DNA from: Marsupella aquatica
Lineage: Eukaryota > Plantae > Marchantiophyta
Direction: 5' to 3'
Assembly (NCBI GenBank): GCA_973895155.1
Contig: OZ316899.1
Location: 7,505,241 to 7,569,240, forward strand
Length of the DNA stretch: 64,000 nt
Shown here: positions 10,301 to 59,349 of the stretch, in pieces
Position numbering within the stretch: position 1 is the first letter of the stretch
How the letters are laid out: each line of letters begins with the position of its first letter
The notes under the pieces: generated by a model
Seen by the model: only the letters and a program-made list of their open reading frames with translations
Databases searched by the model: none
What the model was told of the DNA's origin: nothing
Program-made: the position numbers and the translations under genes

Positions 10301-13144
10301 AGGGATTCATCCGATTACCATGGCGGTTAATCGAGATACCAGATGAGGATCTGTTGGACTTTGTGGGATGCTGGGAGGCTTCTTCCAACATGACGTTGCT
10401 GTATGGAAAGGTGTTTGAACGAACACCTACGCTTATCAAAGCTGTCTTCACTTTACCAACAGGAAGGAAGACCAAGGTGGAGCAGAGGAAGACGTTACCG
10501 GATGACCAGTTCAGGTCATTTACAGGGCCTTCCACTAAGAATGGGTTCTTCAGGAATCAATATACAAACTCGCATATAGGGCAGCTGATTGATTTCCTGA
10601 GAGTCACGTTGCATTGTACCTTGCCAAGAGCAAAACTCGGCAAAGCCCGGGTATTTTTGGTGGAGAATATCGATTCAAGCCAAGACTACAACGGCTATCT
10701 CTTAATGCAGTTGAAGAAGGCATTGAATGAAGAGAAGCAGAGTATTGGGGAAGGAGCGGTATCCAGACTAGGGTACCATCTGCAATTACTTTGCCAATAT
10801 GCAAGAAGCCAATCTTTTGCACTAGTGTTGCCTATATAGGAGCGGATGCCGATCATGCACCACTTGAGGAGATGGGGGAGGACAAGCAGCCCCTGAACAA
10901 GCGACGGCAAGAGAAGAGGTCGGCAATACAAGCAGTCCAGGGACGTGAGAATTCCCCTCCCAAGGAACCAGAGGTGGTAACATATGATGTGGTGAGAAAT
11001 CCACTACGACGGCCTACTCGTAATAACCCATATGCAGGCATTTACCTGGTAGAGAGGAAGATGACTGCCGAAGAAAGAAAGAAACGAGATGAGCAAATGG
11101 ATTTGGAGTCAGAAGATGGAAGCCGAGGCAGAAGTCCAAAGAGGCCAGTCCTTAGAGCTTCTAGCCCAGGCCGAAGTCTGGAGAGGCCAGTCCTTAGAGC
11201 TTCTAGTCAAGGCCAAAATCCGGAGAGGCCAGTCCTTAGAGCTTCTAGCCGGGCCCGAGTGGAGGAACCGGTGGAGGTAAATCAACCAGTGGCAGCCCAA
11301 CAATACTCAGAGGAGGAGATTGGGGGCTTTGCAGAAGAGGCCGACATGCTCGGTAGTTAGGTTAATGTGGATGACTATGACGATGATTTTGTCGATCATG
11401 GGGAGAGACCGGTGCCGGGAGTGAGAACGTTGGGAAGGTTTTGTAGAAGACTTCCCTCAGTCTTTTATGGCAAGCCAGAGGATCAAAAAACCCCAGAGTC
11501 TCCTCCACCGGACGTGACACCATTGGAATTTGACCGAATGAAGGAAGCCGAGGCAGGTCTAAAGGAGAAACGCGACAAGTGGAGGGCCCAAAATGACATG
11601 CAGGAACGGCAGCTACTAGACGGTGATTGATCGGAGAAAATAAGATGGCTTAGTGAGAAGCAGGCTGAACCTCTCACTGACTTTGATCAATTTCGGGCAG
11701 AAGCCTAGGAGAAACGGCCTTGTTGGCAGATGCCAGTATCACCTGGCAGGTCAAAATATGCCAGGGATCGGGCTAGGGAGTATGGAGACATGTGTGGACT
11801 GCTAGCCTTAGAAATCTTTGGCAATGAGTTAGAATCCGGACCATTTCTTAGAAAGGAAATGGCTGACCAAACAAGGTTGGAGGAGGCAATGACGTTGGAG
11901 CGATTAAAGAAAGAAGAGGTAATCGCTCGGCTTTGCTCCATGGAAGCTGAAGTTGCTAAGACGAAGTCTGATCAACCAACTCAGCAGGATCTCTTGGCTA
12001 AGCAGCAGGAATTGGAAGTGGCAAACAACCAATTGGAAAACTACCAATTGGATTACCAGCAGATCAAGGAAAAATTGACGAAGGTAGAGCTGGAGTTAGC
12101 CGATTCAAAAGATGAGGTACAGGGTCTAAATCGCCAAGTCGAGAGGCTTAGAAAGATGGCTAAGGAGCAGGCCACCCAGAGCGAGAAGGCCTTGGTAGAA
12201 GCCCAAAGGAAGTATGACAAGTTACTCGACCGGTTGGAGGCCATGCGTGAGAAGCATGAGGACGCCATTTGCACAGCGGCCAATGATCACCTAAGCCGAG
12301 TCCAACAGATATGCAAGGAGCTTTAGGAGGAGCTAATCAGCACAAAGCAGGCATGGACGGACGAGGTCACAAAGTTGGAAAGCATCAACGATTCCCAGAG
12401 AACCGCTTTGGATAAGCAGGAGTTTGAGATTGTGCAGATCTTAAACGAGGAGCTCAAGACGGCCAAAGAAGAGGCGCATCGGCTTAATGAGGAGGTTGAG
12501 GATTTATCCTAAGAGCTGGAGGAGGCCAAAGACAAGATGATCGGCTTGCAGAGGCTGCAGATAATCAAACGGAGAAGTTGTGAAAGTATGCCGAAGCCGG
12601 GCACGAATCACCAACTGGACGGGCTCCCGCTAGTGGCGTGGTCGCCGGGAATACTGAGGTGCCGAAGCCGACATCTATATTGTCAAGAGTAACTGGGGGT
12701 AAGGCAATATAGTTGGTTGCGGATCTGGCCAAAACATTCATGGGGCCAGCAAGTACTTCTGGGGTACCTCTCAAAGCCATGCCAGAAGAGGTTGAGAGTA
12801 TGGCTGCCCATATTTGTGGGACTGTTGCTACAAAGGCAGCCGTGGTAGAGATAAGTAATGCCGATGAACTTGGAGCTGCGGTAACAGGTTCAGACACTGG
12901 TACAGCCACCATGGACTACCAGAATGTGAAGCCGTGGAAGATCGATACAGAACGTATTGGAGAGCAGGCTTGGATTGAGGAAGTGAAGGCCAACGCTATC
13001 CAAGCCGTTTCCCAGGAGGATGCTGATGCCGTTGCTGATGCCGGGGCCGACAAACCAGAACCCAAAGTTAAAGGGATCAAGCCGGAGCCGATGGCAGGAG
13101 AAGGCGTAGAGTCAGAAGATTCGGGCTTACCCCCGGTCATCTGA
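10301..13144 (+). pseudogene. Family-B LTR accessory ORF, disrupted, N-terminus displaced by element A
   Basis: GFIRLPW...DLLDFVGCWE...GPSTKNGFFRN...SRLGYHL and the coiled coil are homologous to the family-A ORF. Confidence 0.85.
11121..11253 (+). repeat. 42-bp coding tandem repeat, 3 copies (RGRSPERPVLRASS)
   Basis: AGAGGCCAGTCCTTAGAGCTTCTAG core repeated with a 42-bp period. Confidence 0.92.
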
Positions 13145-14046
13145 CAATTAAGGAGGGCCAGTCATCGGTTGGAAGGAGGACGTGGCGGTAGGAGAAGGGC
13201 TTGGGCCAGAAGGGCGCGGCCGTTGTAGGATGGGACAGGGCGAGTAGCGCCTTGTCGGCTTAGGTAGTATTAGATGCTTGGTTCCCACAGGGTTCCGGGC
13301 TAGTCAAGTTTTTTAGGTGATAGTTTTTTTAGTTGGATTATTGCGGTGGAAGGCCGTGAGTTGTGGTTAGGATTTCCGCCTTTTCCCCTGAATGCGCTGC
13401 AAGGATAAAAACCTGGGCAGTGTGGCTCGAGGGGCTTTTTCTTAGTCAAGACTCTAGTGTAAAGTCAGTATTGCTAGCATACAGCTCTCGGCTAAATCTA
13501 GACCACGGATTATCAGTAAACCACAAATTTCCATTTCTGTGCAATTGTTTGAATTGAGTTGGCCTTGTTGCCTAGTTCGCAGATTCTTGCAATCATGGCG
13601 TTGTGTGTTGTGATACTTGTCGCTTGATCGATTTGAGTCAGTTAGAGCGATATTGTGAAGCTATACAATCGCATTGTCTTGATTGGAGACAGCCAAACCA
13701 AACTCTGAGAGAAAAGTGAGGATTGAGAGTGTTTTGTTGGTTAAAGTGTGGGTTGAGTCGGTCTGAGAAAAACCTTCAGCCGGCTTAAGAGATTAAGCCG
13801 TAGAGGTACATTCCGGGGGCGGATTACAAACATACCCAACGAAGTCAATTGAGAATTAGGTGTCACAGCAATGCACAATTAGCAAGCCCAGTGAAAGAAT
13901 TGGTCCAGCATAGTGTGGATTGAGAGTAGATCGTGTTTCGAAGCCGAATGGTAGCCAAACCACCATAAGCCGACCATAAGTAGGGGTTTATTGCTGGAGG
14001 CAGATGGTTCTTGGGGTTAGAGGTGTTGGGAAACGCGCCACATTTT

Positions 14047-30568: not shown

Positions 30569-30580
30569 AAATGGTGTCCT

Positions 30581-37718: not shown

Positions 37719-40076
37719 GTGTTTTACTCTTATTATTATTATTGTTGTTGAAATATGCCTTTCTAAAGTAACAAGGTATTATGGTAAGAACATCAACCAT
37801 AGCTAGAGAGCTCAAATCAATATCCACACACACTCATACTTCATTGATAGATAAATAAGGAATACAAAGGGTAATAACCTTATAGGTTGTTTGGTAACTG
37901 CCTTGTGTGGTGTTAACTATGCTTAGGGTAGCTAACCATTGTAGGGTTAGATTTTCACCCTTAACACTCCCCCTTGGTTGATATATGTAAAGTATCAACC
38001 ACACTAAAGATAAAAACTAACCTTACTGTAATTGTTAACTTTGTATCCTATTTAGGTGTGGTCTCATCAAAACCTCCCTGCGTTCTTCTAGAGGAAAGAG
38101 TGCCACCACCGACATTATATAGGACCATGTTAATAGAATGTTATTCTTTAAGTCATGGCTAAGTGTATTCAAAGAGTTAATATCTATCGCTTTTTACTTT
38201 AACCTAAAGAATATTCGGGTTGTTTCTACAAGCATGGTATCTATTGTGTGGACAGCGTAATGTTGATGGTTGAGTTTCGATAGTCGGTGGAGGCGTTGCG
38301 GGTTCATGAGCAGGAGCTGATTGGGTTGAAGCTTATCATGTTGGAGCTTATCAATTTGTAGTGAGCTCCGTTGAATCCCAAGAAGTTGATCAATGACAGA
38401 GTTGTGGTGGTAGCGGCTTGGTAAAGAGGTCTGCTCTGTTTTCAGCTATAGGGATCCATTTTATGCCCAATTTTACGTTGATCTTATCTCCTTGTTGCTC
38501 CTATGTAAAAAAAGATTTTTGGGGCTGTGTGTTTTATCCTATTGCCCTTTATGAAACCCTGTGCTATTTGATCCATGCAAGGTCTATTGTCTTCAAAGAT
38601 TGTTGTGGGCTTTTGTAGGGTTTGTATGCCGCAGCTTTTGTGAATATGATTAATTACTTGGCGGAGCCACATGCATTTGCGGCAGGCCTCATAGAGTGCT
38701 ATCACCTTTGAATGATTAGATGAGGTAGTGGTGAGTGTTTGCTTGGTGATTTTCCATGAAATCGCTCTGTCCATAAAGAAAGGCATAATAAACCTGTCTG
38801 AGATTTTGAATCATCCGGGTCTAAGAGGTAGCCTGCATCCGCATATCTAGTTACTTTGTTTGTTACTTTCTTGGGGAAGTAGAGATCCATATCCATTGTC
38901 CCTTGGAGGTATTGAATCACACGCTTTATTCCATTCCAATGGCGAATGGTTGGCTATGCACTGTGGTGAGCAAGTAGATTTATAGCAAATGCTATATCTG
39001 GTCGAGTCTGATTTGCCAGGTACATAAGGGCCCCTTTGGCCGAGAGGTATGGTTTCTCTGGGCCGATTACCTGCTCGTTCTCCATTTGTTTCTTGAACAT
39101 GTCTTTTGCCGGATATAATGAGCGCAGGTCCATTGGTGTGCTTACTGGCTTTGAATTTTGCATGTTGAACTGTTTAATAATCTTGGTGTATGTTGCTTGA
39201 TTTATCAGTATGCCGTCCGGTAGGTAGTCGAATTGCAGTCCCAAACAGAAGTTGGGTGTTCCAAGATCCTTCATTTTGAAGACTCCTTTTAGCTTGTCTG
39301 TTCTCTGTGCCGTTAACATAGGTGTCCCAAATATATTGATGTCGTCTACATATAATGCAATAATTGTTAAACATCACAATAACACCAACTGTTTTACTCA
39401 TCCAATTCCTTCATATACATAGTTGGTTGCCTAGGTGGTTGGTTGTATAACCGTCACGGGTTAGGGGTTTAGTCCTAACCTTAGGTAGACTTGTTCTAGG
39501 GGTTGCAACACTCCCCCTTGGATACATTGTTATAGAGAAGATGTAGACATTTAAAGTCTACCTTGACTATCTATTGGGAAATTGAGTGGTCTTCGAGTTT
39601 ATTGTATGGTAGGGGTATAATATGGTAAAAAAAAGGTGGGGTGTAACCTCATTAAAACCTCCCCTCCTTTCTTGTGGGAGGAAAGAGTGTTACCACCCGT
39701 CCCTTAGTTGAGTCGGGTTTGTCTAAGTAAGTGTAAATGTATAAAATTGTCTTAACCTAAAGGTTATTGGAAATTGTTCGGTAGTGTAAGGTGAGTTGTA
39801 GTTTGTAGAGTTGTCGTTGCAGTCGATCAGGTTGATGCTATGTTGTAGTGGTTTTGGTTGTCACGTAGGTGCTGCATCGATCGTCTTTGTGCGTGGTATT
39901 GTCTGCTTCTGTGAAGTTGATGTAATCACCATATCGGTGATTCTTGAAGTTTGTGTTGGTCTTCTGGTGGATTCATTGGTGGTGCGGTGAACTGGATTGT
40001 CAATTGGTGATGCTGGTCGATTGGTGATGCTGGTCGTCTTGAGTGTAGTGCCGCAGTTGGATAATCGGGGAGCAGT

Positions 40077-43000
40077 TGTGGTGCGTCCCATGGCTCCCTA
40101 AACCCAAGAAACCCCCCAGCTCAAGCCGATTCCCGCAGGTTTCGTGCTTGGCGAGGCCGTTTCCGCGGCTTAGCGGCATGGGACGCTGCTAACCTTCTAC
40201 TACTACTATTAACATTTTACACACATATACTGGACAGATCCTTCATCGGGTCATGAGATACGTAGCCGGCCTAATATAGGCCTTCCCCTGTCTTCCCCTG
40301 TCTTCCCCTCCGTCTTGTTAGGTATGTTTGGATTCCGCCGCCGGAATGATCCCCAATAGGCTTGGTTAAGCCGCTAAGACCTCTCTCAGCTCGACACATC
40401 CAACTCTCACTCCCCTGCTTACTTTCCTTCTTTCTGTTGATGTGGGCACTCTTCACACAAGTTAATGCGACACACAAATAGCAAAATGACTCATTCTGAC
40501 TGAGTCATACCATGCACTTGCCATACAAACAGTACATCTCATACACAAGTTCTGCGAACTAAGCCGTGAGGCCAACTCTATTCAGCTCTTAGGCATGAGG
40601 AAACATGAATATACACAAGGGTCACTGTATGACTAACCGAGAGCTTCTCGTACTACTTGATCCCAGCCCGGCTGATGCAAACTAAAAACTTGCTAAAGAA
40701 GAGGCCCTGAGCTCCCCGCTGCCCAGGTACTTATCCTGGTAGTGGATCCGCCATTCTTTGCATCGTAAGCCTAATCTACTTAACAGTAATCTACTTGCCC
40801 GAATCTACCTATGTACAGCAAGGCAGGAGCACAAGTGTTGCTCCTACCAGTGGGACCGCAATCCCACTAAGCTAAGTGTCAGGGCCGCTCCTGGTTCTGA
40901 TCCTAATCCTAAACGTGGAGATCCGTGCCCGCTCTGCCCACTCACGCCTCCTCCCTCCACGTCCGCCCTCCCTAAAAGGAACGGCGCCCTTGCACCGTCA
41001 CGACACCGGTGGTGGATCCTCAATGGACGCCCCCAACACTTCCTCCTCAGCCACTGCCGTTGGCCCGCCTACTGACAGATTACCTGCCCTTGACCGAGTC
41101 AACTCTCCCTCGGCCTGACTGGGTCCACCTTCGGCTTCAGCCTCGACACCGGCCTCGGCAATACCCACGGCTTCGGCTTCAGCCACCCCCACGGCTTCGG
41201 CTTCAGCCACTCCCTCGGCTTCGGCCTCCCCTTCCCCTAGGGTAGTTGGATCCTTAGCTGTGACCCTGTCTGGGGTCGGTGCCGGGTCTACCTCCTTGAT
41301 CACCACGGCCTGTGAAGTCGTATTACTCCTTGACCCTGAAGGTTTCCGCTTCTTCTTCGTTGGTGGCTCGGCAGCTGGTCCCTTCCCCTTCCCACTTACC
41401 TCCGGCACTGGTGCAGGTGGCGCGGCTTGTCCTTCGGCAATTACCACCCCTGGTAACTGGTTTGTCCCAACAGGAGATGGACCTGCTGCAGCTAAGCATT
41501 TAAATACTGCGGCTTGTTTCTTCAGCCGCTCTGTTTGGTTGTCGGCCCGCCGCTGTAGGTTCTCCATCTTCCTCGTGATTTCCTCCAACTCCTCTTGGGT
41601 TTCATCCAGGTCCTTACGTGCCCCCTCCAGCTCGTTTTTGGCCTCCTCCTGCTCCCTGTGGGCTTCCTCCAATTCCTTCTTCAAGGTAGCCTTCTCCTCC
41701 TGGGTTGCTCTTAGCTCCTTGTCGAGCTCTGCAATGATGACAGACTCCATCTGGTTCATCTTGGCGTAAGTCTGTTCGAGCATCTCGTCCTTCTCCCTTA
41801 GGTCGGCCTTGAAGCTGGCCGTCAGGGACGCAAGCTCCTGCTGCAGCGCCATAATCCCTTGATAGGATTTCCCTAACTCGACCTCCTTCTGCTCAAGGGC
41901 TCCGCGGATTTTCTCGAGCTCCCCTTTCAACGCCCATTCCTTTCTTTGGGTCTCCGCCATGGCCCGGCTGTTGGCTGTTATGTGGGCCTCCTCTGTATTC
42001 TTCAGCTCTTGCTTCCACTTTTCCCTTTCTTTGATCGTGTCGGCCAACTCTTCCTGCGTCTGAGTCAGTTTATCCTTGATATTCTGATTATCAGCCTGCG
42101 CGGCGTCCAACTGCCCCTGCATGATGTTCAGCTCATGTCGTTTAATCCGCAGTTCATCTTGGGCTTTCTTGGCCGCCCTTAGATCTTCAATCTCGGCTTC
42201 CATCCTCCTAAGCCGCCGAATGACCTCGTCCTTCTTGCTTCTCTCTAAAGCCACCGCTTCTTCTAATTGGTGCTTCTCCAACTGCTCCCTATGGAAAAAG
42301 GGTCCTACCTCCAACTCCTCTCCAAAGATGCCGAGCGCAAGTTCCCCACACATCTCACCATACTCCATGGCTCTATTCTTAGCGTAGGTGGAGTAAGTAG
42401 AAGTGATCGGCATCGCCCATCGTGGCCTCTGCTCCCAAGCCGTCCTGCGGATCTCTTCAATCGTGGCTAGAGGTTTGCTTCCTTTTTCGGCTAGCCGCCT
42501 GATGTCCTCCGGCCAATCTCCTCCTGGTAAATCCTTTTCCTTAGCCAGGGCGGCCTCTTCCTCCTGCTTGATTCGCTCCTGAAATTCCTGCACCGTCTAT
42601 TTTATGCCGTCGAAGCTCGGGGGAGCAACATCTGGTGGGGGAGACTCAGGGCTACTCTGCTGGTTGGGGTCCCCTCGCACTACCCTTGGAAGTGTGGGGA
42701 CAAACCGGCCACAGGTCCTTACTCCTGGAACGTGATGGTCCGACCCATAGCCGGAATTATCATGGCTGCAGTCCTCCACTGCCTCCTCTACCTCTTGGAT
42801 TTCCGGCTTCTCCCTCTCCTCTTCCTCGGTAGGAGCTTCAGGCAATTCTGCCTCAGATTCGGAGCTTGAGGTTCCCACGTACATTCGAACACCTGGCTTG
42901 GATTCCGGCCTGATTCTCTCGTCTCCAGCAAAGGGGTTTTCTCTTGTGAGCCGGTGTAGGCCTACCTCTGTAGTAGTGTCCTGCATGGTTGCCGTTGCCG

Positions 43001-44733
43001 TTGTTGTTGCCGATGCCGATTTCTTTTCTTTCTCCAGTAGTTTCAGCAGACTCTGCATGCCTGGTTGCTGCATCGGCAAGTCTTCCTTCCTGGGCCTAAA
43101 CACCTGCTCGATCGTAGGACTAACAGGTGGTTGAGGCTTCTCAGCCAACGGCCTCGGCGTTGGAGCTTCCTCGGGTGCCCTTACCTGCAGGGGAAGTACC
43201 GGGGCAAAAGTCTGACCTCTGGCATACCGGCACAACAGCGGCATGTGATAGCCAAGCCGCGACACGCTCCCCATGCCGATTACCTGCTGCTCCTCCTTTA
43301 AGATCTTCTTCAATTGGTTGAGGAGGTACCCGTTGTAGTCCCGGCTTGGGTCTGGCCTTTCTGCCAGATAGACCTGTGCCTTGCCGATCTCTGCCCTCGG
43401 CAAGTTACAATGCATGGTCACCCGCAAGAAGTCGATCATCTCTCCTATGTGCGGGTTGGTGCAGGTGTTCCGGAAGAAGCCATTCTTCGTTGATGGCCCG
43501 GGGAACGACCGGAACTCCTTGTCAGGCAAGGTCTTCCTGGTATCAACTTTGGTCTTATTGCCCATCGGCAAGCCAAACACTTCGGCAATCACCTTGGGAG
43601 TAAGATAGAAATCCTTCCCATATATCCTCGTGCAATTGGTCTCGGGTTCCCATGACCCCATGAATTCTAATAGGTCTGACTCCGGTACCTCCGGCTTCAG
43701 CCATGGTAATCTTACAAAGGCCTCCAAGCCGGATCCGGCCATGAAGCCTTGGTACTTCTTGGTCTGCATGGCCGTAAAGCATGCATCCTCCTCCCGTGCA
43801 AAATGTAGTTGCACCTCCACCGGTAGGGTTGCCGCCCAGCCCTTCCAGGTGTCATCCCTGGTTGGAATGGCCTTGATGGGATCGACCTCCTCCTCTTCGG
43901 CTTCTCCCTGCCTCCTGCTCTGCTGCTCGGCTGGCTTCTTTGGTGCCGTCGACCTCGTTCTTTTTGCCGGGGTGGCTTCATCGTTGACGGCTCCCTTCCT
44001 CTTCATCTCTGCTGCCGTGGAGGTTTCTCCTAGCACCGTTGCCTGGGTCCACCTTTCCGTGCTACCCTTTAATTCCCAGTGTATGTCGTTGCAGTTCTTG
44101 ATGGCCTCTCGGATGCCGACGACGCTGTCCTTGCAAAACAGAAGATCGTCGAGTTGATTGGAAGTAGGCGTCCACAGGAACTCGTCCTTGATGAGTTCGC
44201 CTCCTAAGAAAGCCGTCTTCTGCAGCTCCCACAATCGAGCGAGCTCCTGCCGTTCTCGAGCTGCCCTTTCTGACTCCTCGTCCTCGTAAGTCTTGATGTA
44301 CTCAGTTGCCCGTTCGAACAGGCATCCCCAGAAATGTGCCGCTTGATTGACGTTGCTCATACCCTCCTTAGGTTGATCGTCGGTATCTACTCTCTCCCCG
44401 AGTGCTTGCCTAAGCAGCTGACAGTAGTTGGCCTCCCGTAGTCGTCTGCCTAGTTCGTGCTCGCAAATGAGCCACCATCTCCTGCAAGCGCTCCTTACCC
44501 CTCTCCTCTGCCGGTCCTTCTTCCCGTTGATCCTTCCTAGCCGCCGACGCTTAACGCGCCCTAACCCTAATCGGGTTTTCACCCTCAGCCTTACCTCCGG
44601 CCTCTGCCCGGGTTCCATGGTTGCCCCTAATTGTTTATATTTTCCTTGTTTTGTCACTATACTAAGGTGTTCCTAGGGTGCCTTCCTGCTTTACCCACTT
44701 AACCGGCCGAGTGATTCCTGTCTAGGCATCACA
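40077..44733 (-). repeat. 3' LTR of element F (4657 bp)
   Basis: About a dozen substitutions relative to 49124-53780; preceded on the minus strand by the PPT. Confidence 0.95.
40998..44618 (-). pseudogene. LTR accessory ORF, 3' LTR copy with one CAG>TAG stop at 42597-42599
   Basis: The 686-aa and 531-aa ORFs are in one frame and otherwise nearly identical to the 1219-aa ORF. Confidence 0.92.
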
Positions 44734-45525
44734 TAGCTCCCCACTTAATTGTGAAGCGTCCTCGCGAACAACTTCATCTTCGTCCATATAGTATTTCTTG
44801 AGGCGGTCATAATGGATGCGAACTGGATATACCTCTCCCGTAATGTTGGCCAATTGCACGGAGCCATTGGGGAACATCATGGTTACTCTAAAGGGTCCTA
44901 ACCAGCGAGTGTAAAGCTTTCCTGGAAACCTACTATACCTACTGTCATAAAGTAGCACAAGATCACCGGTATGAATACTAACTACTTTTAACCTTTTATC
45001 ATACTGCTGCTTCATGATATTCTGTCTATATTCTACTCTCTCGGCTGAAATCATTCTCGCTTCCTCTAAAGCTTCTAACCTATATTCTCGCTCCTTTAGG
45101 CTCTCCTCCGCTGAGGCTCTTTCTTCAATTGTAACTTGAAATGTCGGTATCTCAAGTTGCATGGGTACCAGGGCTTCTTGTCCAAAGGTTAAGAAGAAGG
45201 GTGTATGACCGGTAGTGGATTTATAGGCAAGATTGTAAGCAAAAACAGCAGCAAACAATTTATCATCCCAATCGAGTTTGTTCTGAGCTACTGTTTTGTT
45301 CAATATCTTTCCTATGATTCCGTTTGCTCGTTCTGTCAACCCGTTTGCCTTTGGATGGTAGGGAGTAGTAGGCCTATGTTTAACTAAATACTGCTCATTT
45401 AAACGACTAATTATATCATTCAAAAAATGGGTTCCTCTATCACTAACTAATTCTAGGGGTGCTCCATACCTGGTGAAGATCTGCTCATACATGAATCTAG
45501 CCGTAGTAATTGCATCATCCTTCGT
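44722..45525 (-). pseudogene. C-terminal half of the element F integrase
   Basis: VSDRGTHF, GLTER, WLGPF; ends SGELCDA* overlapping the PPT and the first 12 nt of the LTR. Confidence 0.9.
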
Positions 45526-46130
45526 ATTGGTTGTCGAAATGATTTGGCTCCTAACATGAGATCAATTCGATGTTCCCCTAGTGTTGGATCTACGCCCTTT
45601 AGATCTTGGTGACTCCATGCAAACACATCCTGAAATTCAATTAATAAGTCACTGATCTCTTTCTCGAGCTCAGGTGCTAGGTTTCTCCCTAAGTTCAGTT
45701 CTCTTCCCTCTCCTAAGTCGAGCTTCCGATATTGCCGTGCTTGGATCATATTAATCTGCTTCTTCAAATTCGGGTCCAGTTCGGCTTCCAGTCTCTCTAA
45801 TCTCATACCTCCATAAACTGGGATCTCGGCTGGACTAGCCGAGTCGGTCCCTTCCTTGGTGTCCATAGATTGTCCCCTTACCGGTCTATTCGGTTTTGAA
45901 TTAGTGGTCGGCTCCCCTTCCTGCCTTGGCTCTGGATCGTGTCTGTCCATCTCATCCACCTCTTGCTCCTGAGAGTTAGGCCGTTGTGCTCTCTCGGCTT
46001 CTAATAGGGCCTCAATTTGTTCTGCCCTCGTAATCGGCTTGTATGCCGATCCCTTGGTATTTAATTCCTTGCCGATGATCGAGGGCGTTGTGGACCACGT
46101 CGGCTCTGCCACAACGCCTGCAAAAAATCC
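45526..46130 (-). pseudogene. pol N-terminus of element F (linker and RT start) up to the deletion junction
   Basis: The -1 frame after GGATTTT reads GFFAGVVAEP...DVFAWS...FRQPIRR. Confidence 0.85.
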
Positions 46131-49054
46131 ACTGTCCCTGCTACTGCTCCCCACTTAGCCGTTTCATCCAATTGGTCTACATCCTTAACTTCCTCCGGAA
46201 TTGCAGCTAAAAAGGTGGATTCTATTGTAAAGCAGTCCTCGACCTCTTCGTCTTCTTCTTCCAAGTCACCTTCCATTGGTTCTTGCCATAATCCGCTGGG
46301 GGGTACCTCTGGTCCAAAGACACCTTCTTCGGTTAGGTTAGTGAAGCATTCTAACCAACGTACTTCATCGGCTGACCCCAGTCCACTATCGTACCCATCT
46401 ACTTCCCTTATGCTTTTCCTACGGTCATCCTTAGTGTCCCAGGATACCGTGATAGAGGGGGTCCCGAAAGTGAACTGCTTTTTACCCCAATCTTCTATTA
46501 CCTCGGCTAGGTACAGCCATGGCCTACCAATCAATAGCCGGAATGACGTAGGATTTACCGGCTTCATTACTACATAGTTAATGCTAAAGAAGATACCTCC
46601 TATCTCTGTCTTGATGCCGGTTAACACTCCCGTCGGAATGACCTGATATCCATTGGCCATGTTCAACACTCTTCCAGTCATCTCCGGTGTTAGACCCCAC
46701 CCTTTTGCTGTTGAATCAATCATAATACATACCCCTGATCCTCCATCGATGGGTACCCGTAGTAATAATTCTCCTTGAATCATTAATGGTAATGCTGGGG
46801 CTCCTTGATCTTCTTCTATCATTAGTACGTCGGATCTGGTTGCTACCTTGGGTAATCTCGGCTTGCCGAGAATAGCCTTCCTTAATTGCTTCCGGAAGTA
46901 CGGGCTATTTTTCAATAGTTGACCTACTGTTGCCGAGACTCTAGATTCTAGTACATCTTTAGCCAGGTCATAGGGAACAATCGGCTTCTCTTCTGGTGGT
47001 GTTTCCGTCTTGGATTCGGCCAGTTTTGCCACGCTAGTCTCCACAGCTGTTGGGTCTTCCGAAGCAAACAATGCTTTTGCTCGTTTTACATCCTTGGCAA
47101 TGGCTTCGGTATTCTCCAGGGTTTCTAATTCTCTTAGTTGTTCCTTAACACTAGCCGTAACAGAGGGGTAGAACAACTTAGGATGATCTCGATTGAAGTC
47201 GCTATCTTGTGAAGGATTGGTTTCACTGGTGGGCTCATGGCTTACCTGTATTGCCAGAGCCCTCCCTTCTCCTTCTGTTGATGTTGACCAAGAGTCGATC
47301 CTTTCCTTCGTAACCTTCCCTTTATTTTTGGCCAGCCCATCCCACCTTTCCTTCCTTCTGGTAGATCGAGTAGAGACCCGGTAGCAATCATGATCTAAAT
47401 CCTCCTCTGAGAAGGTTGATAGGGCTTCGGCCTCATCATCAGATGGTACGAACTCTGCCTCGGCATCCTCTTGCCATCCTAGTTCGATGTGGTTGATTTG
47501 AACTCCTCCGGGGGTAGTACCTGGCGGTAAGATCTTGATCGGCAAAAGCTTATGATTTGCGGCCAGGCCTGCCAACCAAGTAGGACATTGCCCTAGCATA
47601 TGACCTTCCTGTCGGCATCCCATACATAGCTGAGCTGGTTGTCCATCACCCTGTTTGCGTGCATTCGGGCATTCTCTAGCAAAATGGCCAGGTTGACCAC
47701 AATTATAGCACGCCGCAAATCTTTGCACATTCGGCCTAGGAGGTACTGACGGGTTCTGAATAATCCGAGGATACATCTCTCCTGGATTGTTCCTTAACCC
47801 TGACCACAGAGATGCAGGTCTGTTGGATAGGTCTCGTGCTCCAGTCTCACTGATGCCGAAAACACTATCAGCGGCATCTCCCAAAAAGTACTCTACTTCT
47901 CCCTGACATGGTCTGATCTCGGCCACATGCCGAACATGATTAGTATTAAGCTTAGGACAAGCATCTTTATGGTGTCCGGTTTTATAACATAAGGCACACC
48001 ATACAGAGCTATCCTCCTGTACTACCTTCTTCTTTGGTTTTACCTCTGCAATGATAGCCTTAAGTTGCTCGGTAAGGGCTACGATGTTATCTGGTGGCTT
48101 AGCCTCCATCTTGACTTTCGTCTTCCCTCTCCTTCTGCCCTTCCTTTTCCTAGTTTTTTCTTCTTCAGAACTAGAAGATGACTCACTCTTGCTACTCCCA
48201 CTATTCGAGCTTGACTTATCACTTCTAGACTTCTTGGAATGTTTCTTCTTCTTATCTTTTTTCTTGTGGGGTGATCCCTCCTCTGATGAGGAACTCTCAG
48301 ACTTAAGCTGTTTCTTCCGGCTTGTGATATCTGCATTAATGTATAATTGAATATCCTTAATTGCTTCGGCTAAGGTCTCCGGGTTCTCCTTCCTAATTGC
48401 AAAACTCATCTTCTGTGGCAAAGCATTCACCAACCATTGAAGTTGCATACCTTCAGATGCATTGGTCTTTGTACGTCTTACCAGTTTCTGAAAGCGTTGC
48501 AAGAACTTCCTGAAGGATTTGTTCTCCTTGAACCGAAGTTGTCCCAACTTCAGCACTGCTAGTTCTGAAGTTCCAATGGGTCGAAACTCCTTAACAAAGA
48601 GTGTTTTGAAGATATCCCAGATGGCTTGATCTTCCACATCTAATGCTCTGTACCAAGGCCTAGCCTCACCCTTGAACAGGCCGGGAAGAATCTGCATCTT
48701 GATGGCCGATTCTCCATTTGCTGCAGCGGTTCCCTCGAAATCATCCAACCATTCGTCCGGATCCTCATCTCCTCTCCCATGAAATGCCTTGTAATGTATG
48801 CGCGACCGCTGGCTCAATCTGGTCCCTGGCCTCTCGTCTGGCCGTGCCTCTGGTTCCCCCATGTCGGTTGGAGACTCACTTCTCCTTACCGACTCTTCTT
48901 CTGGTATGTCTTCTTCGACGCCACTTCCAGTTTCGGAGCTACCAGCTCTTTCTGCCCCTCTCAGTCGCTGTGTATCATGCCACCCGGCGAGCTGCTGCAG
49001 TCGAGCTCTCTCCCGTTGAATCACTCTTTCTTCCCTCGGCGTAAGGTCAGTCAT
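46061..49054 (-). CDS. gag: Intact Gag-protease polyprotein (997 aa)
   Basis: Retrotransposon gag core (DPDEWL...ARPWY...FVKEF), Ser/Lys-rich linker, three CCHC knuckles, PIDGGSG protease. Confidence 0.95.
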   Translation of the reverse strand: MTDLTPREERVIQRERARLQQLAGWHDTQRLRGAERAGSSETGSGVEEDIPEEESVRRSESPTDMGEPEARPDERPGTRLSQRSRIHYKAFHGRGDEDPDEWLDDFEGTAAANGESAIKMQILPGLFKGEARPWYRALDVEDQAIWDIFKTLFVKEFRPIGTSELAVLKLGQLRFKENKSFRKFLQRFQKLVRRTKTNASEGMQLQWLVNALPQKMSFAIRKENPETLAEAIKDIQLYINADITSRKKQLKSESSSSEEGSPHKKKDKKKKHSKKSRSDKSSSNSGSSKSESSSSSEEEKTRKRKGRRRGKTKVKMEAKPPDNIVALTEQLKAIIAEVKPKKKVVQEDSSVWCALCYKTGHHKDACPKLNTNHVRHVAEIRPCQGEVEYFLGDAADSVFGISETGARDLSNRPASLWSGLRNNPGEMYPRIIQNPSVPPRPNVQRFAACYNCGQPGHFARECPNARKQGDGQPAQLCMGCRQEGHMLGQCPTWLAGLAANHKLLPIKILPPGTTPGGVQINHIELGWQEDAEAEFVPSDDEAEALSTFSEEDLDHDCYRVSTRSTRRKERWDGLAKNKGKVTKERIDSWSTSTEGEGRALAIQVSHEPTSETNPSQDSDFNRDHPKLFYPSVTASVKEQLRELETLENTEAIAKDVKRAKALFASEDPTAVETSVAKLAESKTETPPEEKPIVPYDLAKDVLESRVSATVGQLLKNSPYFRKQLRKAILGKPRLPKVATRSDVLMIEEDQGAPALPLMIQGELLLRVPIDGGSGVCIMIDSTAKGWGLTPEMTGRVLNMANGYQVIPTGVLTGIKTEIGGIFFSINYVVMKPVNPTSFRLLIGRPWLYLAEVIEDWGKKQFTFGTPSITVSWDTKDDRRKSIREVDGYDSGLGSADEVRWLECFTNLTEEGVFGPEVPPSGLWQEPMEGDLEEEDEEVEDCFTIESTFLAAIPEEVKDVDQLDETAKWGAVAGTVDFLQALWQSRRGPQRPRSSARN

Positions 49055-49123
49055 TACCTACGCTTCCGTTCTAACTTCATATCTCACGGCTTAAGAAATG
49101 CCCCCTCCATCTAGCGCCAAAAA

Positions 49124-52100
49124 TGTGGTGCGTCCCATGGCTCCCTAAACCCAAGAAACCCCCCAGCTCAAGCCGATTCCCGCAGGTTTCGCGCTTGGCG
49201 AGGCCGTTTCCGCGGCTTAGTGGCATGGGACGCTGCTAACCTTCTACTACTACTATTAACATTTTACACACATATACTGGACAGATCCTTCATCGGGTCA
49301 TGAGATACGTAGCCGGCCTAATATAGGCCTTCCCCTGTCTTCCCCTGTCTTCCCCTCCGTCTTGTTAGGTATGTTTGGATTCCGCCGCCGGAATGATCCC
49401 CAATAGGCTTGGTTAAGCCGCTAAGACCTCTCTCAGCTCGACACATCCAACTCTCACTCCCCTGCTTACTTTCCTTCTTTCTGTTGATGTGGGCACTCTT
49501 CACACAAGTTAATGCGACACACAAATAGCAAAATGACTCATTCTGACTGAGTCATACCATGCACTTGCCATACAAACAGTACATCTCATACACAAGTTCT
49601 GCGAACTAAGCCGTGAGGCCAACTCTATTCAGCTCTTAGGCATGAGGAAACATGAATATACACAAGGGTCACTGTATGACTAACCGAGAGCTTCTCGTAC
49701 TACTTGATCCCAGCCCGGCTGGTGCAAACTAAAAACTTGCTAAAGAAGAGGCCCTGAGCTCCCCGCTGCCCAGGTACTTATCCTGGTAGTGGATCCGCCA
49801 TTCTTTGCATCGTAAGCCTGATCTACTTAACAGTAATCTACTTGCCCGAATCTACCTATGTACAGCAAGGCAAGAGCACAAGTGTTGCTCCTACCAGTGG
49901 GACCGCAATCCCACTAAGCTAAGTGTCAGGGCCGCTCCTGGTTCTGATCCTAATCCTAAACGTGGAGATCCGTGCCCGCCCTGCCCACTCACGCCTCCTC
50001 CCTCCACGTCCGCCCTCCCTAAAAGGAACGGCGCCCTTGCACCGTCACGACACCGGTGGTGGATCCTCAATGGACGCCCCCAACACTTCCTCCTCAGCCA
50101 CTGCCGTTGGCCCGCCTACTGACAGATTACCTGCCCTTGACCGAGTCAACTCTCCCTCGGCCTGACTGGGTCCACCTTCGGCTTCAGCCTCGACACCGGC
50201 CTCGGCAATACCCACGGCTTCGGCTTCAGCCACCCCCACGGCTTCGGCTTCAGCCACTCCCTCGGCTTCGGCCTCCCCTTCCCCTAGGGTAGTTGGATCC
50301 TTAGCTGTGACCCTGTCTGGGGTCGGTGCCGGGTCTACCTCCTTGATCACCACGGCCTGTGAAGTCGTATTACTCCTTGACCCTGAAGGTTTCCGCTTCT
50401 TCTTCGTTGGTGGCTCGGCAGCTGGTCCCTTCCCCTTCCCACTTACCTCCGGCACTGGTGCAGGTGGCGCGGCTTGTCCTTCGGCAATTACCACCCCTGG
50501 TAACTGGTTTGTCCCAACAGGAGATGGACCTGCTGCAGCTAAGCATTTAAATACTGCGGCTTGTTTCTTCAGCCGCTCTGTTTGGTTGTCGGCCCGCCGC
50601 TGTAGGTTCTCCATCTTCCTCGTGATTTCCTCCAACTCCTCTTGGGTTTCATCCAGGTCCTTACGTGCCCCCTCCAGCTCGTTTTTGGCCTCCTCCTGCT
50701 CCCTGTGGGCTTCCTCCAATTCCTTCTTCAAGGTAGCCTTCTCCTCCTGGGTTGCTCTTAGCTCCTTGTCGAGCTCTGCAATGATGACAGACTCCATCTG
50801 GTTCATCTTGGCGTAAGTCTGTTCGAGCATCTCGTCCTTCTCCCTTAGGTCGGCCTTGAAGCTGGCCGTCAGGGACGCAAGCTCCTGCTGCAGCGCCATA
50901 ATCCCTTGATAGGATTTCCCTAACTCGACCTCCTTCTGCTCAAGGGCTCCGCGGATTTTCTCGAGCTCCCCTTTCAACGCCCATTCCTTTCTTTGGGTCT
51001 CCGCCATGGCCCGGCTGTTGGCTGTTATGTGGGCCTCCTCTGTATTCTTCAGCTCTTGCTTCCACTTTTCCCTTTCTTTGATCGTGTCGGCCAACTCTTC
51101 CTGCGTCTGAGTCAGTTTATCCTTGATATTCTGATTATCAGCCTGCGCGGCGTCCAACTGCCCCTGCATGATGTTCAGCTCATGTCGTTTTATCCGCAGT
51201 TCATCTTGGGCTTTCTTGGCCGCCCTTAGATCTTCAATCTCGGCTTCCATCCTCCTAAGCCGCCGAATGACCTCGTCCTTCTTGCTTCTCTCTAAAGCCA
51301 CCGCTTCTTCTAATTGGTGCTTCTCCAACTGCTCCCTATGGAAAAAGGGTCCTACCTCCAACTCCTCTCCAAAGATGCCGAGCGCAAGTTCCCCACACAT
51401 CTCACCATACTCCATGGCTCTATTCTTAGCGTAGGTGGAGTAAGTAGAAGTGATCGGCATCGCCCATCGTGGCCTCTGCTCCCAAGCCGTCCTGCGGATC
51501 TCTTCAATCGTGGCTAGAGGTTTGCTTCCTTTTTCGGCTAGCCGCCTGATGTCCTCCGGCCAATCTCCTCCTGGTAAATCCTTTTCCTTAGCCAGGGCGG
51601 CCTCTTCCTCCTGCTTGATTCGCTCCTGAAATTCCTGCACCGTCTGTTTTATGTCGTCGAAGCTCGGGGGAGCAACATCTGGTGGGGGAGACTCAGGGCT
51701 ACTCTGCTGGTTGGGGTCCCCTCGCACTACCCTTGGAAGTGTGGGGACAAACCGGCCACAGGTCCTTACTCCTGGAACGTGATGGTCCGACCCATAGCCG
51801 GAATTATCATGGCTGCAGTCCTCCACTGCCTCCTCTACCTCTTGGATTTCCGGCTTCTCCCTCTCCTCTTCCTCGGTAGGAGCTTCAGGCAATTCTGCCT
51901 CAGATTCGGAGCTTGAGGTTCCCACGTACATTCGAACACCTGGCTTGGATTCCGGCCTGATTCTCTCGTCTCCAGCAAAGGGGTTTTCTCTTGTGAGCCG
52001 GTGTAGGCCTACCTCTGTAGTAGTGTCCTGCATGGTTGCCGTTGCCGTTGTTGTTGCCGATGCCGATTTCTTTTCTTTCTCCAGTAGTTTCAGCAGACTC

Positions 52101-53780
52101 TGCATGCCTGGTTGCTGCATCGGCAAGTCTTCCTTCCTGGGCCTAAACACCTGCTCGATCGTAGGACTAACAGGTGGTTGAGGCTTCTCAGCCAACGGCC
52201 TCGGCGTTGGAGCTTCCTCGGGTGCCCTTACCTGCAGGGGAAGTACCGGGGCAAAAGTCTGACCTCTGGCATACCGGCACAACAGCGGCATGTGATAGCC
52301 AAGCCGCGACACGCTCCCCATGCCGATTACCTGCTGCTCCTCCTTTAAGATCTTCTTCAATTGGTTGAGGAGGTACCCGTTGTAGTCCCGGCTTGGGTCT
52401 GGCCTTTCTGCCAGATAGACCTGTGCCTTGCCGATCTCTGCCCTCGGCAAGTTACAATGCATGGTCACCCGCAAGAAGTCGATCATCTCTCCTATGTGCG
52501 GGTTGGTGCAGGTGTTCCGGAAGAAGCCATTCTTCGTTGATGGCCCGGGGAACGACCGGAACTCCTTGTCAGGCAAGGTCTTCCTGGTATCAACTTTGGT
52601 CTTATTGCCCATCGGCAAGCCAAACACTTCGGCAATCACCTTGGGAGTAAGATAGAAATCCTTCCCATATATCCTCGTGCAATTGGTCTCGGGTTCCCAT
52701 GACCCCACGAATTCTAATAGGTCTGACTCCGGTACCTCCGGCTTCAGCCATGGTAATCTTACAAAGGCCTCCAAGCCGGATCCGGCCATGAAGCCTTGGT
52801 ACTTCTTGGTCTGCATGGCCGTAAAGCATGCATCCTCCTCCCGTGCAAAATGTAGTTGCACCTCCACCGGTAGGGTTGCCGCCCAGCCCTTCCAGGTGTC
52901 ATCCCTGGTTGGAATGGCCTTGATGGGATCGACCTCCTCCTCTTCGGCTTCTCCCTGCCTCCTGCTCTGCTGCTCGGCTGGCTTCTTTGGTGCCGTCGAC
53001 CTCGTTCTTTTTGCCGGGGTGGCTTCATCGTTGACGGCTCCCTTCCTCTTCATCTCTGCTGCCGTGGAGGTTTCTCCTAGCACCGTTGCCTGGGTCCACC
53101 TTTCCGTGCTACCCTTTAATTCCCAGTGTATGTCGTTGCAGTTCTTGATGGCCTCTCGGATGCCGACGATGCTGTCCTTGCAAAACAGAAGATCGTCGAG
53201 TTGATTGGAAGTAGGCGTCCACAGGAACTCGTCCTTGATGAGTTCGCCTCCTAAGAAAGCCGTCTTCTGCAGCTCCCACAATCGAGCGAGCTCCTGCCGT
53301 TCTCGAGCTGCCCTTTCTGACTCCTCGTCCTCGTAAGTCTTGATGTACTCAGTTGCCCGTTCGAACAGGCATCCCCAGAAATGTGCCGCTTGATTGACGT
53401 TGCTCATACCCTCCTTAGGTTGATCGTCGGTATCTACTCTCTCCCCGAGTGCTTGCCTAAGCAGCTGACAGTAGTTGGCCTCCCGTAGTCGTCTGCCTAG
53501 TTCGTGCTCGCAAATGAGCCACCATCTCCTGCAAGCGCTCCTTACCCCTCTCCTCTGCCGGTCCTTCTTCCCGTTGATCCTTCCTAGCCGCCGACGCTTA
53601 ACGCGCCCTAACCCTAATCGGGTTTTCACCCTCAGCCTTACCTCCGGCCTCTGCCCGGGTTCCATGGTTGCCCCTAATTGTTTATATTTTCCTTGTTTTG
53701 TCACTATACTAAGGTGTTCCTAGGGTGCCTTCCTGCTTTACCCACTTAACCGGCCGAGTGATTCCTGTCTAGGCATCACA
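49124..53780 (-). repeat. 5' LTR of element F (4657 bp)
   Basis: Minus strand TGTGATGC...GCACCACA (7/8 terminal inverted repeat); TSD on the outer side, PBS on the inner side. Confidence 0.95.
50045..53665 (-). CDS. Intact LTR-encoded accessory protein (1206 aa from the first ATG; 1219 aa from the GTG at 53704)
   Basis: Uninterrupted ORF: Arg-rich N-terminus, GKDFYLTPKVIAEVFGLPMG domain, ~250-aa coiled coil, KKKRK motif, acidic AEAE tail; homologues in A and B. Confidence 0.9.
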   Translation of the reverse strand: MEPGQRPEVRLRVKTRLGLGRVKRRRLGRINGKKDRQRRGVRSACRRWWLICEHELGRRLREANYCQLLRQALGERVDTDDQPKEGMSNVNQAAHFWGCLFERATEYIKTYEDEESERAARERQELARLWELQKTAFLGGELIKDEFLWTPTSNQLDDLLFCKDSIVGIREAIKNCNDIHWELKGSTERWTQATVLGETSTAAEMKRKGAVNDEATPAKRTRSTAPKKPAEQQSRRQGEAEEEEVDPIKAIPTRDDTWKGWAATLPVEVQLHFAREEDACFTAMQTKKYQGFMAGSGLEAFVRLPWLKPEVPESDLLEFVGSWEPETNCTRIYGKDFYLTPKVIAEVFGLPMGNKTKVDTRKTLPDKEFRSFPGPSTKNGFFRNTCTNPHIGEMIDFLRVTMHCNLPRAEIGKAQVYLAERPDPSRDYNGYLLNQLKKILKEEQQVIGMGSVSRLGYHMPLLCRYARGQTFAPVLPLQVRAPEEAPTPRPLAEKPQPPVSPTIEQVFRPRKEDLPMQQPGMQSLLKLLEKEKKSASATTTATATMQDTTTEVGLHRLTRENPFAGDERIRPESKPGVRMYVGTSSSESEAELPEAPTEEEEREKPEIQEVEEAVEDCSHDNSGYGSDHHVPGVRTCGRFVPTLPRVVRGDPNQQSSPESPPPDVAPPSFDDIKQTVQEFQERIKQEEEAALAKEKDLPGGDWPEDIRRLAEKGSKPLATIEEIRRTAWEQRPRWAMPITSTYSTYAKNRAMEYGEMCGELALGIFGEELEVGPFFHREQLEKHQLEEAVALERSKKDEVIRRLRRMEAEIEDLRAAKKAQDELRIKRHELNIMQGQLDAAQADNQNIKDKLTQTQEELADTIKEREKWKQELKNTEEAHITANSRAMAETQRKEWALKGELEKIRGALEQKEVELGKSYQGIMALQQELASLTASFKADLREKDEMLEQTYAKMNQMESVIIAELDKELRATQEEKATLKKELEEAHREQEEAKNELEGARKDLDETQEELEEITRKMENLQRRADNQTERLKKQAAVFKCLAAAGPSPVGTNQLPGVVIAEGQAAPPAPVPEVSGKGKGPAAEPPTKKKRKPSGSRSNTTSQAVVIKEVDPAPTPDRVTAKDPTTLGEGEAEAEGVAEAEAVGVAEAEAVGIAEAGVEAEAEGGPSQAEGELTRSRAGNLSVGGPTAVAEEEVLGASIEDPPPVS

Positions 53781-53842
53781 GCAGTGTTGTCTGTCTGGGA
53801 GCTGGAGGTAAGTGCGCGCTCCCCTTGAGTCTTGGAAGGTCT

Positions 53843-59033: not shown

Positions 59034-59349
59034 TGTCTTCATCACTCATTCCCAGTTGACATGAAAGACTTATACAAACCCCACAAAGTACCTCCTTTAG
59101 TCATTTTATGAACCCTTTAAGTATTCTTAAAGACTACCCACTAACACCATTTTAGTCCTTCCCAACGACTCACCTGAGCATCCCATAAAAGACTGAAAAT
59201 GACTCACCAAAGCTACCCATACAAAGACTATAAACAACTGAAAATCCAGTCCATTATACGACTGATCATGTAGTTCTATAAAGGACTCAGTGGATTGTAG
59301 TAACAAAACATATGACTCACAGTCTTATAAAGGATTGTAGTCCCGCCCA
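59034..59349. mobile_element. 316-bp insertion in the RT of H; probable solo LTR
   Basis: TG...CA flanked by GTCTTT on both sides; removing it joins IHHRLGLAKD to TTYVV..VQVLRS, similar to element D. Confidence 0.6.

Follow-up and report, generated by a model that had tools for sequence, protein, structure and literature searches.

Genes that lie in or overlap the U3 part of an LTR are found in retroviruses, such as MMTV sag, HIV nef and foamy-virus bel/tas. In Arabidopsis, the accessory protein VANC21 of VANDAL elements (Mutator-like) was reported to bind short motif sites that lie in the non-coding DNA of the element encoding it, and the same account describes transposon-encoded VANC as an activator (PMC5735166). 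As far as the structural reports describe it, VANC is similar to the PMD of the host proteins MAIN and MAIL1 (PMC13547354; bioRxiv 2024.09.27.615353), which were first presented as required for silencing (PMC5418596). Among plant Ty3/gypsy elements, Tat/Ogre extra ORFs encode a PMD and a coiled coil, and the antisense ORFs of Retand encode Transposase_28 and a coiled coil (TRP28/SMC-like). The reports on these elements give a shared layout, a globular domain and then a coiled coil, and propose a nuclear role (PMC4408406; PMC11963269). PMD plus coiled-coil extra ORFs in Tat elements are thus already known. The 3' sense ORF of Athila (ATHILA, PF03078, or Transposase_32, PF20167) is placed by one account between pol and the 3' LTR (PMC7264820), and another mentions predicted coiled-coil oligomerisation for the Athila domain (PMC13547354). 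What the extra ORFs of plant LTR retrotransposons do is called an open question in two of these sources (PMC7264820, PMC4408406). For DNA transposons, accessory proteins that counter silencing in a sequence-specific way are presented as documented, with LTR lineages stated as open (PMC12844716).

We analysed a stretch of 64 kb (the window), probably of a moss- or liverwort-type plant, containing a retrotransposon, A2, whose LTR holds a long accessory ORF. Its parts are as follows.

49124..53780, minus strand: 5' LTR of A2 with the intact accessory ORF, 4657 bp, TG..CA
40077..44733, minus strand: 3' LTR of A2, 4657 bp, with an ORF copy (44618-40998) having one stop at codon 674
40072..40076, plus strand: target-site duplication GCAGT, 5 bp, partner copy at 53781-53785
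49101..49119, minus strand: primer-binding site, which begins TGGCGCTAGATGG and is identical in families A and B
44734..44746, minus strand: polypurine tract, directly adjoining the 3' LTR, upstream of the accessory ORF
46061..49054, minus strand: gag-protease ORF, 997 aa, stop-free, with Retrotrans_gag and zf-CCHC (Pfam)
44722..45950, minus strand: pol remnant, with RT, RNase H and the first integrase half deleted and a junction near 45515
50045..53665, minus strand: accessory ORF, 1206 aa, open, in the gag-pol sense, beginning 115 nt past the LTR start

A2 is a young Ty3/gypsy element, with 11 mismatches between its two LTRs. The element type is a non-chromovirus Ty3/gypsy LTR retrotransposon: it has a TG..CA LTR pair, a target duplication, a primer-binding site and a polypurine tract, and the order gag-protease-RT-RNase H-integrase was read from copies A1 and B, A2 itself being without RT and RNase H. 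No tRNA gene was found within the 64-kb window. At 45515, contigs from sequencing runs X1 and X2 carry on into other sequence, and at the LTR edge 49124 the contigs of two sequencing runs split into many flanks (17 and 36 loose ends; agreement among contigs 0.39 and 0.36). No chromodomain was detected, the integrase ORF stopping at the LTR, 12 nt of which it enters in the A2 remnant. The pol pieces scanned with Pfam gave no extra RNase H, and the integrase ends at the LTR; these points disfavour Tat membership and fit the compact pol known for Phygy/Selgy (PMC6317226). Tat/Ogre and Retand elements, by contrast, are described as having an extra RNase H and as carrying their ORFs between the LTRs (in sense at the 5' end or in antisense at the 3' end) in seed plants (PMC4408406; PMC11963269), whereas here the ORF lies inside the LTR, and PF10536 and PF04195 are unmatched. 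For moss Tat-like elements, the account in PMC4408406 reports no extra ORFs.

The first-pass annotation had proposed an LTR-borne protein, and this was borne out: the 1206-codon ORF falls wholly within a 4657-bp LTR, for which the paired LTRs, primer-binding site and polypurine tract were located. Because the ORF sits between the polypurine tract and the primer-binding site, the gene belongs to both LTRs. The retroviral U3 genes are likewise encoded downstream of the polypurine tract and copied into both LTRs, but they specify unrelated proteins, are far shorter than 3.6 kb and belong to animal retroviruses. Neither a promoter nor a splice route was identified for the accessory gene at the locus. 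A TATAAA 21 nt upstream of the ATG was considered as its own promoter and rejected, this spacing being too short for a promoter role. Decayed copies of the ORF are present elsewhere in the window.

5826..10300, plus strand: 3' LTR of A1, an older copy of family A, whose ORF copy is decayed (6 internal stops, one frameshift)
10302..14042, plus strand: family-B LTR, interrupted where A1 inserted, whose homologous ORF is decayed
20183-23888: partner of this family-B LTR

The 15 internal stops mapped in A1, B1, B2 and the A2 3' LTR all fall at different codons, which points to one ancestral long ORF. A natural split into two ORFs at codon 674 was rejected, since the stop there is absent from every other copy.

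The accessory ORF is under purifying selection. Its core has a dN/dS of 0.12 (95% bootstrap 0.07-0.20), as low as that of four gag-protease segments (0.15-0.24); the value is 0.26 for the coiled-coil region and 0.33 for the whole ORF (against copy A1). Neutral evolution, with dN/dS near 1, which the annotation had named as a ground for giving up its proposal, was therefore rejected. The block said to be conserved between families A and B is indeed present and 66% identical, despite saturation of synonymous sites between them (pS 0.85). As a separate observation, 14 of 28 contig variants in the ORF were synonymous against a site share of 0.23; this share was given no weight, since it was drawn from the best-supported 40 of 574 rows.

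The features of the encoded protein are listed below.

53516..53665, minus strand: basic N-terminus, residues 1-50, net charge +16, possibly NLS-like or nucleic-acid-binding
52226..52933, minus strand: globular core, residues 245-480, whose predicted fold matches VANC21 residues 285-533
50537..51349, minus strand: long predicted 270-residue helix or coiled coil, residues about 773-1043 (heptad test and model)
50390..50404, minus strand: KKKRK patch, residues 1088-1092, putatively a monopartite NLS, in the low-confidence tail of the model

The claims made for these features from the letters alone largely held. Basic NLS-like patches were located at residues 23 (KRRR), 33 (KKDR), 219 (KRTR) and 1088 (KKKRK). 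A long coiled coil is predicted from heptad periodicity and from continuous helices at 773-915 and 919-1043 (pLDDT mostly about 80-90 in the full-length model). The periodicity gave p 0.002-0.02 in four 56-residue windows spanning 897-1036 and p 0.026-0.45 in four starting at 785-869. In the full-length model, low-confidence helices make up most of the N-terminal 245 residues and of residues 670-770. The annotation had also argued that the protein is not an Env. The ORF does lie 3' of pol in the sense orientation, as a retroviral env does, and a coiled coil is present, as would suit an Env-like membrane-fusion protein. However, no 19-residue window has a Kyte-Doolittle mean above 0.98, far under the level of a membrane span, and residues 1-50 are without a hydrophobic core, so that, as judged from hydropathy and charge, neither a transmembrane anchor nor a clear signal peptide is seen. 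A non-functional captured stretch is countered by a dN/dS well under 1 in six of the seven ORF segments, the seventh being a 45-codon linker. The Env-like or non-functional reading is thus largely refuted, and we regard it as most improbable. For a sunflower Athila example, a predicted transmembrane helix, perhaps in another protein, is mentioned (PMC11728184); none is found here.

Searches with the core returned 24 homologues at E<=0.001, the named ones being from a liverwort. The core has conserved basic residues at R361, R370, K378, R399, R408 and K413. At E<=10, neither the protein nor its core pieces matched PMD (PF10536) in Pfam, the protein also gave no match to ATHILA (PF03078), Transposase_32 (PF20167) or Transposase_28 (PF04195), and all 24 homologues were without a match to these four families at E<=0.1. 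The short-motif likeness to PMD and Athila proteins that the annotation had pointed out is therefore unconfirmed. DUF1985 gave no Pfam or PDB sequence match, and PDB sequence searches yielded coiled-coil and chance matches only, with no link to PMD, DUF1985, ATHILA or Transposase_28/32. By language-model features, the nearest named clusters were Transposase_32 and ATHILA, at scores of 0.84-0.88, which are below 0.9 and serve as leads only; two divergent family members both neighbour these clusters. The Athila ORF is also sense and downstream of pol, but it is placed outside the LTR and gives no profile match here. Word-index homologue searches confirmed none of 867 and none of 97 candidates with a single protein and one of 2210 with a profile, and none of 202 pattern matches in metagenome contigs was confirmed as a relative.

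A relationship is suggested at the level of the predicted fold. The core was modelled with pLDDT 85 and pTM 0.84, two of the five core models being poor (pLDDT 46 and 51). The best Foldseek match was the VANC21-DNA complex 9lnj (TMq 0.48, E 0.8); the 46 other matches listed of 114 had TMq of at most 0.15. VIA-align, run on the same core model as Foldseek, aligned 211 of the 236 residues with 9lnk (Z 7.8, a value below 8, which can reflect a common arrangement; rmsd 4.5) and gave Z 8.1 with 9lnj, the two alignments covering 209-211 residues. Only two of 48,161 chains reached Z 2, the second-best at 2.1. Sequence identity to VANC21 is 7-12%. The full-length model had low confidence over much of the core, and with it Foldseek gave no VANC match. 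The modelled core thus appears to share the VANC21 fold at a moderate score, and we grade the match as middling. A PMD fold would be supported indirectly, through VANC21: the annotation's PMD-like assignment would hold for the predicted fold and not for sequence profiles. The moderate match leaves some room for a particle, RNA-chaperone or movement-type protein acting off chromatin, its likeness to VANC being due to ancestry alone or to a chance helical arrangement. The long coiled coil and strongly basic N-terminus would also suit RNA binding or particle assembly, and the best match in a viral structure library was an unnamed 805-aa entry (E 0.02, TMq 0.31). We consider this role unlikely, as the VANC21 match spans 211 of the 236 core residues and has no equal among the 48,161 chains, and as both divergent family members lead to Transposase_32/ATHILA clusters.

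If the VANC21 likeness is accepted, the two systems can be compared further. Both proteins are transposon-encoded accessory proteins (PDB 9LNK, 9LNJ; PMC5735166), and a coiled coil is predicted for VANC too, according to PMC13547354. VANC, however, is carried by a DNA transposon, is described as dicot-specific and has a DUF1985 sequence match, whereas the gene here lies in a gypsy LTR retrotransposon, has named homologues from a liverwort and gives no DUF1985 match. One 7-mer is more frequent than expected in the element's non-coding DNA, which recalls the VANC targets.

49087, 49213, 49414 and 49607 (49087..49613), either strand: four TAAGCCG sites in the non-coding LTR end and leader
51256: fifth TAAGCCG, inside the accessory ORF

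In both families, TAAGCCG ranked first among the 7-mers of the non-coding ends, with four copies in A and four in B (expected about 0.1 each). One B LTR with the internal region had seven (0.47 expected), and the DNA outside gypsy elements had one in 26 kb. With all 7-mers allowed for, family A alone was not significant (140 of 1000 shuffles gave some 7-mer four times), and the corresponding figure for family B was 305 of 1000. VANC targets are often in tandem repeats, whereas the sites here are sparse and without tandem arrays, and two of the four may go back to a common ancestor of A and B. TAAGCCG is a candidate target of the accessory protein; it could instead be the site of a host factor. 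A nuclear protein of the same fold might also act at integration, tethering the cDNA/integrase complex to chromatin or bringing it into the nucleus, the coiled coil serving as a spacer. The basic patches, long coiled coil and DNA-binding-type fold suit this, as does an integrase ORF that ends at the LTR with no chromodomain detected, and such a role is among those proposed for plant extra ORFs (PMC7264820). The sole structural relative found, though, is a silencing regulator, and self-recognition accounts better than target choice for a motif that recurs in the non-coding DNA of the element itself; we judge an integration role improbable.

We favour, at roughly even odds, a nuclear, sequence-specific DNA-binding self-regulator of VANC/PMD fold, borne by the LTR and probably an activator or anti-silencer that would help its own LTRs to stay active despite host silencing. 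The VANC21-like predicted shape suggests that the protein likely helps the element to find and activate further copies of itself. The basic patches would direct nuclear import, the coiled coil would allow oligomerisation, and the protein would bind TAAGCCG in the LTR ends. Deleted copies such as A2 would come under its activating effect as well, and solo LTRs would each retain the gene plus its sites. The shared fold does not by itself give the function, since MAIN and MAIL1 were first described as silencing proteins. The same VANC21-like core could thus belong to an LTR-binding restrainer that controls copy number or recruits silencing, and transposon silencing is reported to be released in MAIN/MAIL1 mutants (PMC5418596). 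That effect is attributed partly to lost MORC1 expression, and MAIN/MAIL1 are said to oppose Polycomb silencing (bioRxiv 2024.09.27.615353); moreover, the transposon-encoded relative VANC is described as activating (PMC5735166). A restrainer is accordingly quite unlikely in our estimate.

The LTR position, the non-seed-plant range and the VANC link were not found in the literature, although the supplements of PMC6317226 and PMC4408406 may list such elements. We propose, tentatively and with more doubt than confidence, that a non-seed-plant LTR lineage encodes a VANC-type sequence-specific anti-silencer in its LTR together with its motif, and that VANC, PMD, ATHILA/Transposase_32 and the accessory family represent one ancient transposon-passed fold predating seed plants. 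Whether LTR lineages practise sequence-specific anti-silencing can be tested directly here, since the gene is intact, its predicted core is linked to a protein-DNA complex of solved structure, and there is a 7-base candidate target. If the tentative proposal is true, the LTR holds both the factor and the bound motif, so every LTR, solo ones included, would be a self-contained gene-plus-target module. The case would, moreover, widen the range of the PMD/VANC fold to liverwort-type plants, in which the sources cited here do not place it, and would show that a 3.6-kb gene can be maintained inside an LTR.

The window consisted of nested LTR retrotransposons. Self-alignment revealed two direct repeats of 4657 bp each with 11 mismatches, which are the LTRs of a young family-A Ty3/gypsy element (A2). 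The features considered here were as follows:

40077-44733 and 49124-53780, minus strand, the two LTRs of A2
50045-53665, minus strand, a 1206-codon ORF in the 5' LTR of A2 (the LTR ORF)
10302-14042 and 20183-23888, two family-B LTR copies (B1 and B2) with a decayed homologous ORF

The LTRs of A2 started with TG, ended with CA and had the target duplication GCAGT on both sides; on the minus strand, a primer-binding site followed one LTR and a polypurine tract preceded the other. The internal region retained a gag-protease ORF without breaks and the last half of integrase. The reverse transcriptase (RT) and RNase H regions were missing by deletion, and both were kept, in gypsy order, in A1 (an older family-A copy) and in the family-B element. 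The LTR ORF, in the gag-pol sense, started 115 nt past the LTR start and ended 921 nt short of the LTR end. Therefore, it lies inside the LTR and not between pol and the LTR. The boundary at 49124 was supported by public data, since 17 and 36 contigs from two sequencing runs diverged there into unrelated flanks. The 3' LTR copy of the ORF had a single stop, at codon 674, and the older copies in A1, B1 and B2 had 14 more internal stops. No two stops fell at the same codon, so the ancestral state was a long single ORF.

Several structural details were also recorded. A2 is non-autonomous (in its pol remnant at 44722-45950, half of integrase is deleted along with RT and RNase H), yet its LTRs are 99.76% alike and its gag-protease ORF is intact. 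The RT deletion in A1 is different and smaller (about 500 bp near 3840). A1 is inserted at 10300-10302, in the core domain of a family-B LTR ORF, and, also in family B, a deletion at 20139-20183 puts integrase in one frame with the central part of the LTR ORF core. At the 3' end of the A2 LTR, an imperfect inverted repeat of ~104 nt (49130-49233), with one TAAGCCG inside, possibly forms an RNA stem in R/U5. Several decayed Ty1/copia elements with Bianca-like gag starts, at 24500-39500 and 53781-64000, host the nested gypsy elements. A 630-codon ORF with no Pfam match (30581-32473) lies between two direct repeats of 1388 bp that are identical in sequence (28627-30014 and 33756-35143); 28627-35143 is possibly another very young LTR element, carrying this ORF as its gene.

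Selection on the LTR ORF was examined against the A1 copy. Over 1188 codons, dN/dS was 0.33 (95% bootstrap interval, 0.27 to 0.39), with 0.12 for the core (residues 245-480) and 0.26 for the coil (residues ~773-1043). The N terminus and the tail gave 0.41 and 0.57, and a linker of 45 codons gave 0.98 with a wide interval. Four gag-protease segments gave 0.15 to 0.24. The values against A1 are probably conservative because decay of A1 after insertion would raise them. Between B1 and B2, dN/dS was 0.58 and 0.41, with few changes, and the interval of 0.58 includes 1. The first-pass annotation had proposed a nuclear rather than an Env protein, with no clear membrane span or signal peptide; no membrane span was found (maximum hydropathy 0.98), and the N terminus was basic and not signal-like. 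The LTR ORF is thus real, under selection and not Env, and the reading as Env or junk is very improbable. The LTR contains a selected gene for a soluble-looking protein.

Other predicted features of this protein also held. Basic patches were present at residues 23, 33, 219 and 1088, and the block said to be conserved between the families showed 66% identity with saturated synonymous sites. The predicted long coiled coil had significant heptad periodicity over residues 897-1036, with a weaker signal over 785-924, and the full-length predicted model contained unbroken helices at 773-915 and 919-1043. Residues 480-665 and 1045-1200, of low confidence in that model, are probably disordered. The family-B ORF linker contains a 42-bp tandem array coding for an Arg/Ser/Pro peptide repeat (3 copies at 11121-11250 and 6 at 20852-21112), and the family-A ORF tail contains a 24-bp array (50197-50275). 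Peptide repeats also occur in VANC variable regions, according to the accessible text of PMC5735166.

A model of the core was built from 29 aligned sequences and reached pLDDT 85 and pTM 0.84; it was the best of five, the others scoring 84, 68, 51 and 46. With Foldseek, DNA-bound VANC21, the anti-silencing protein of Arabidopsis VANDAL transposons, ranked first (E 0.8, probability 0.54, TMq 0.48), and the other 46 among the best 47 of 114 matches had a TMq of ≤0.15. With VIA-align, only 2 of 48,161 chains reached Z≥2: VANC21 (Z 7.8, rmsd 4.5, 211 residues, 7% identity; Z 8.1 for a second crystal form) and a designed protein (Z 2.1). A viral structure library gave one weak, unnamed match. The predicted similarity to VANC21 is moderate in score, both programs ran on one model, and the full-length model, in which the core was poorer, gave no VANC21 match; a chance fold or a non-chromatin role is nevertheless unlikely, as the VANC21 match is isolated, spans the domain and is to the plant-transposon accessory family predicted earlier from sequence.

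Word-index searches found no relatives of the protein; when HMMER was run over all 1.84 billion representatives, 24 proteins passed E≤0.001, the best with 2.8e-49. Among 10 looked up, all 3 with a named source came from the liverwort Calypogeia fissa, as did a fourth relative. These matches suggest that the window comes from a bryophyte-type host. Profiles of plant mobile domain (PMD), ATHILA and Transposase_28/32 matched neither the LTR ORF protein nor any of the 24 relatives. The language-model neighbours of the core, and likewise of a relative ~21-23% identical to it, were Transposase_32 and ATHILA clusters, with scores of 0.84 to 0.88, under the tool's 0.9 mark. The proposed likeness to PMD and plant-transposon proteins was therefore supported at the level of the predicted fold, through VANC21, and not by Pfam profiles. 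Because the profile test failed, the protein is not assigned to these Pfam families; it is predicted to act as VANC/PMD factors do, and its predicted structure combines a long coiled coil with a core of VANC/PMD type.

According to the accessible part of PMC5735166, VANC recognises short motifs of the element that encodes it. For this reason, we counted 6- to 8-mers in A2 and B1, over the leaders and the non-coding ends of the LTRs. TAAGCCG ranked first among the 7-mers of both, with 4 copies in each (~0.1 expected in each). None of 400 paired shuffles shared any 7-mer at this level, a comparison that takes no account of homology between the families, which may link two of the sites in each. 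In single-family shuffles, some 7-mer reached four copies in 140/1000 and 305/1000. One B LTR plus internal region contained 7 copies (0.47 expected), and the A equivalent contained 5 (0.78 expected), versus 1 in 26 kb outside the gypsy elements. The whole window had 31 (4.2 expected), many of them LTR duplicates. No tandem arrays of TAAGCCG were found, and its reader could be a host factor. In family B, an inverted TAAGCCG pair 4 bases apart (13781-13800) lies just upstream of a 32-nt block common to family A.

The LTR ORF probably lies in U3, since it is downstream of the polypurine tract; retroviral U3 genes offer an analogy for such a placement. The genomic RNA would carry this ORF at its 3' end, the ORF would be copied into both LTRs, and its expression would rely on a putative spliced or separate transcript. 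After nuclear entry, the protein would form oligomers and bind the candidate 7-mer in the LTR ends, and binding would favour transcription of the family, in trans too for deleted copies such as A2. We consider this whole mechanism, a nuclear, oligomeric, 7-mer-binding activator of its own family, about evenly balanced between right and wrong. A role in integration or import instead is rather improbable, and self-restraint of the element is less probable still.

In the accessible text of the papers cited here, Tat/Ogre/Retand elements of seed plants carry extra ORFs with PMD plus coiled coil or Transposase_28 plus coiled coil (PMC4408406, PMC11963269, PMC6317226, PMC7264820), and a sunflower Athila ORF carries Transposase_32 (PMC11728184). 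The Tat/Ogre/Retand ORFs lie in the internal region, whereas the one here is inside the LTR. Within the same limits, Tat-like elements of moss showed no such extra ORFs (PMC4408406), the descriptions of PMD come from angiosperms (PMC5418596), VANC is described as dicot-specific and as a structural homologue of MAIN (PMC13547354; bioRxiv 2024.09.27.615353), and PMC12844716, PMC12885004, PMC12859917 and bioRxiv 10.64898/2026.08.24.746577 had no bearing on this family. In the literature covered, which included few subscription papers and no supplements, we found no plant retrotransposon described as having a long protein gene inside the LTR, and no VANC-like fold described from LTR elements or liverworts. 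The LTR ORF is a new variant within a known class, the plant retrotransposon accessory genes, and offers an anti-silencing hypothesis that is open to testing.
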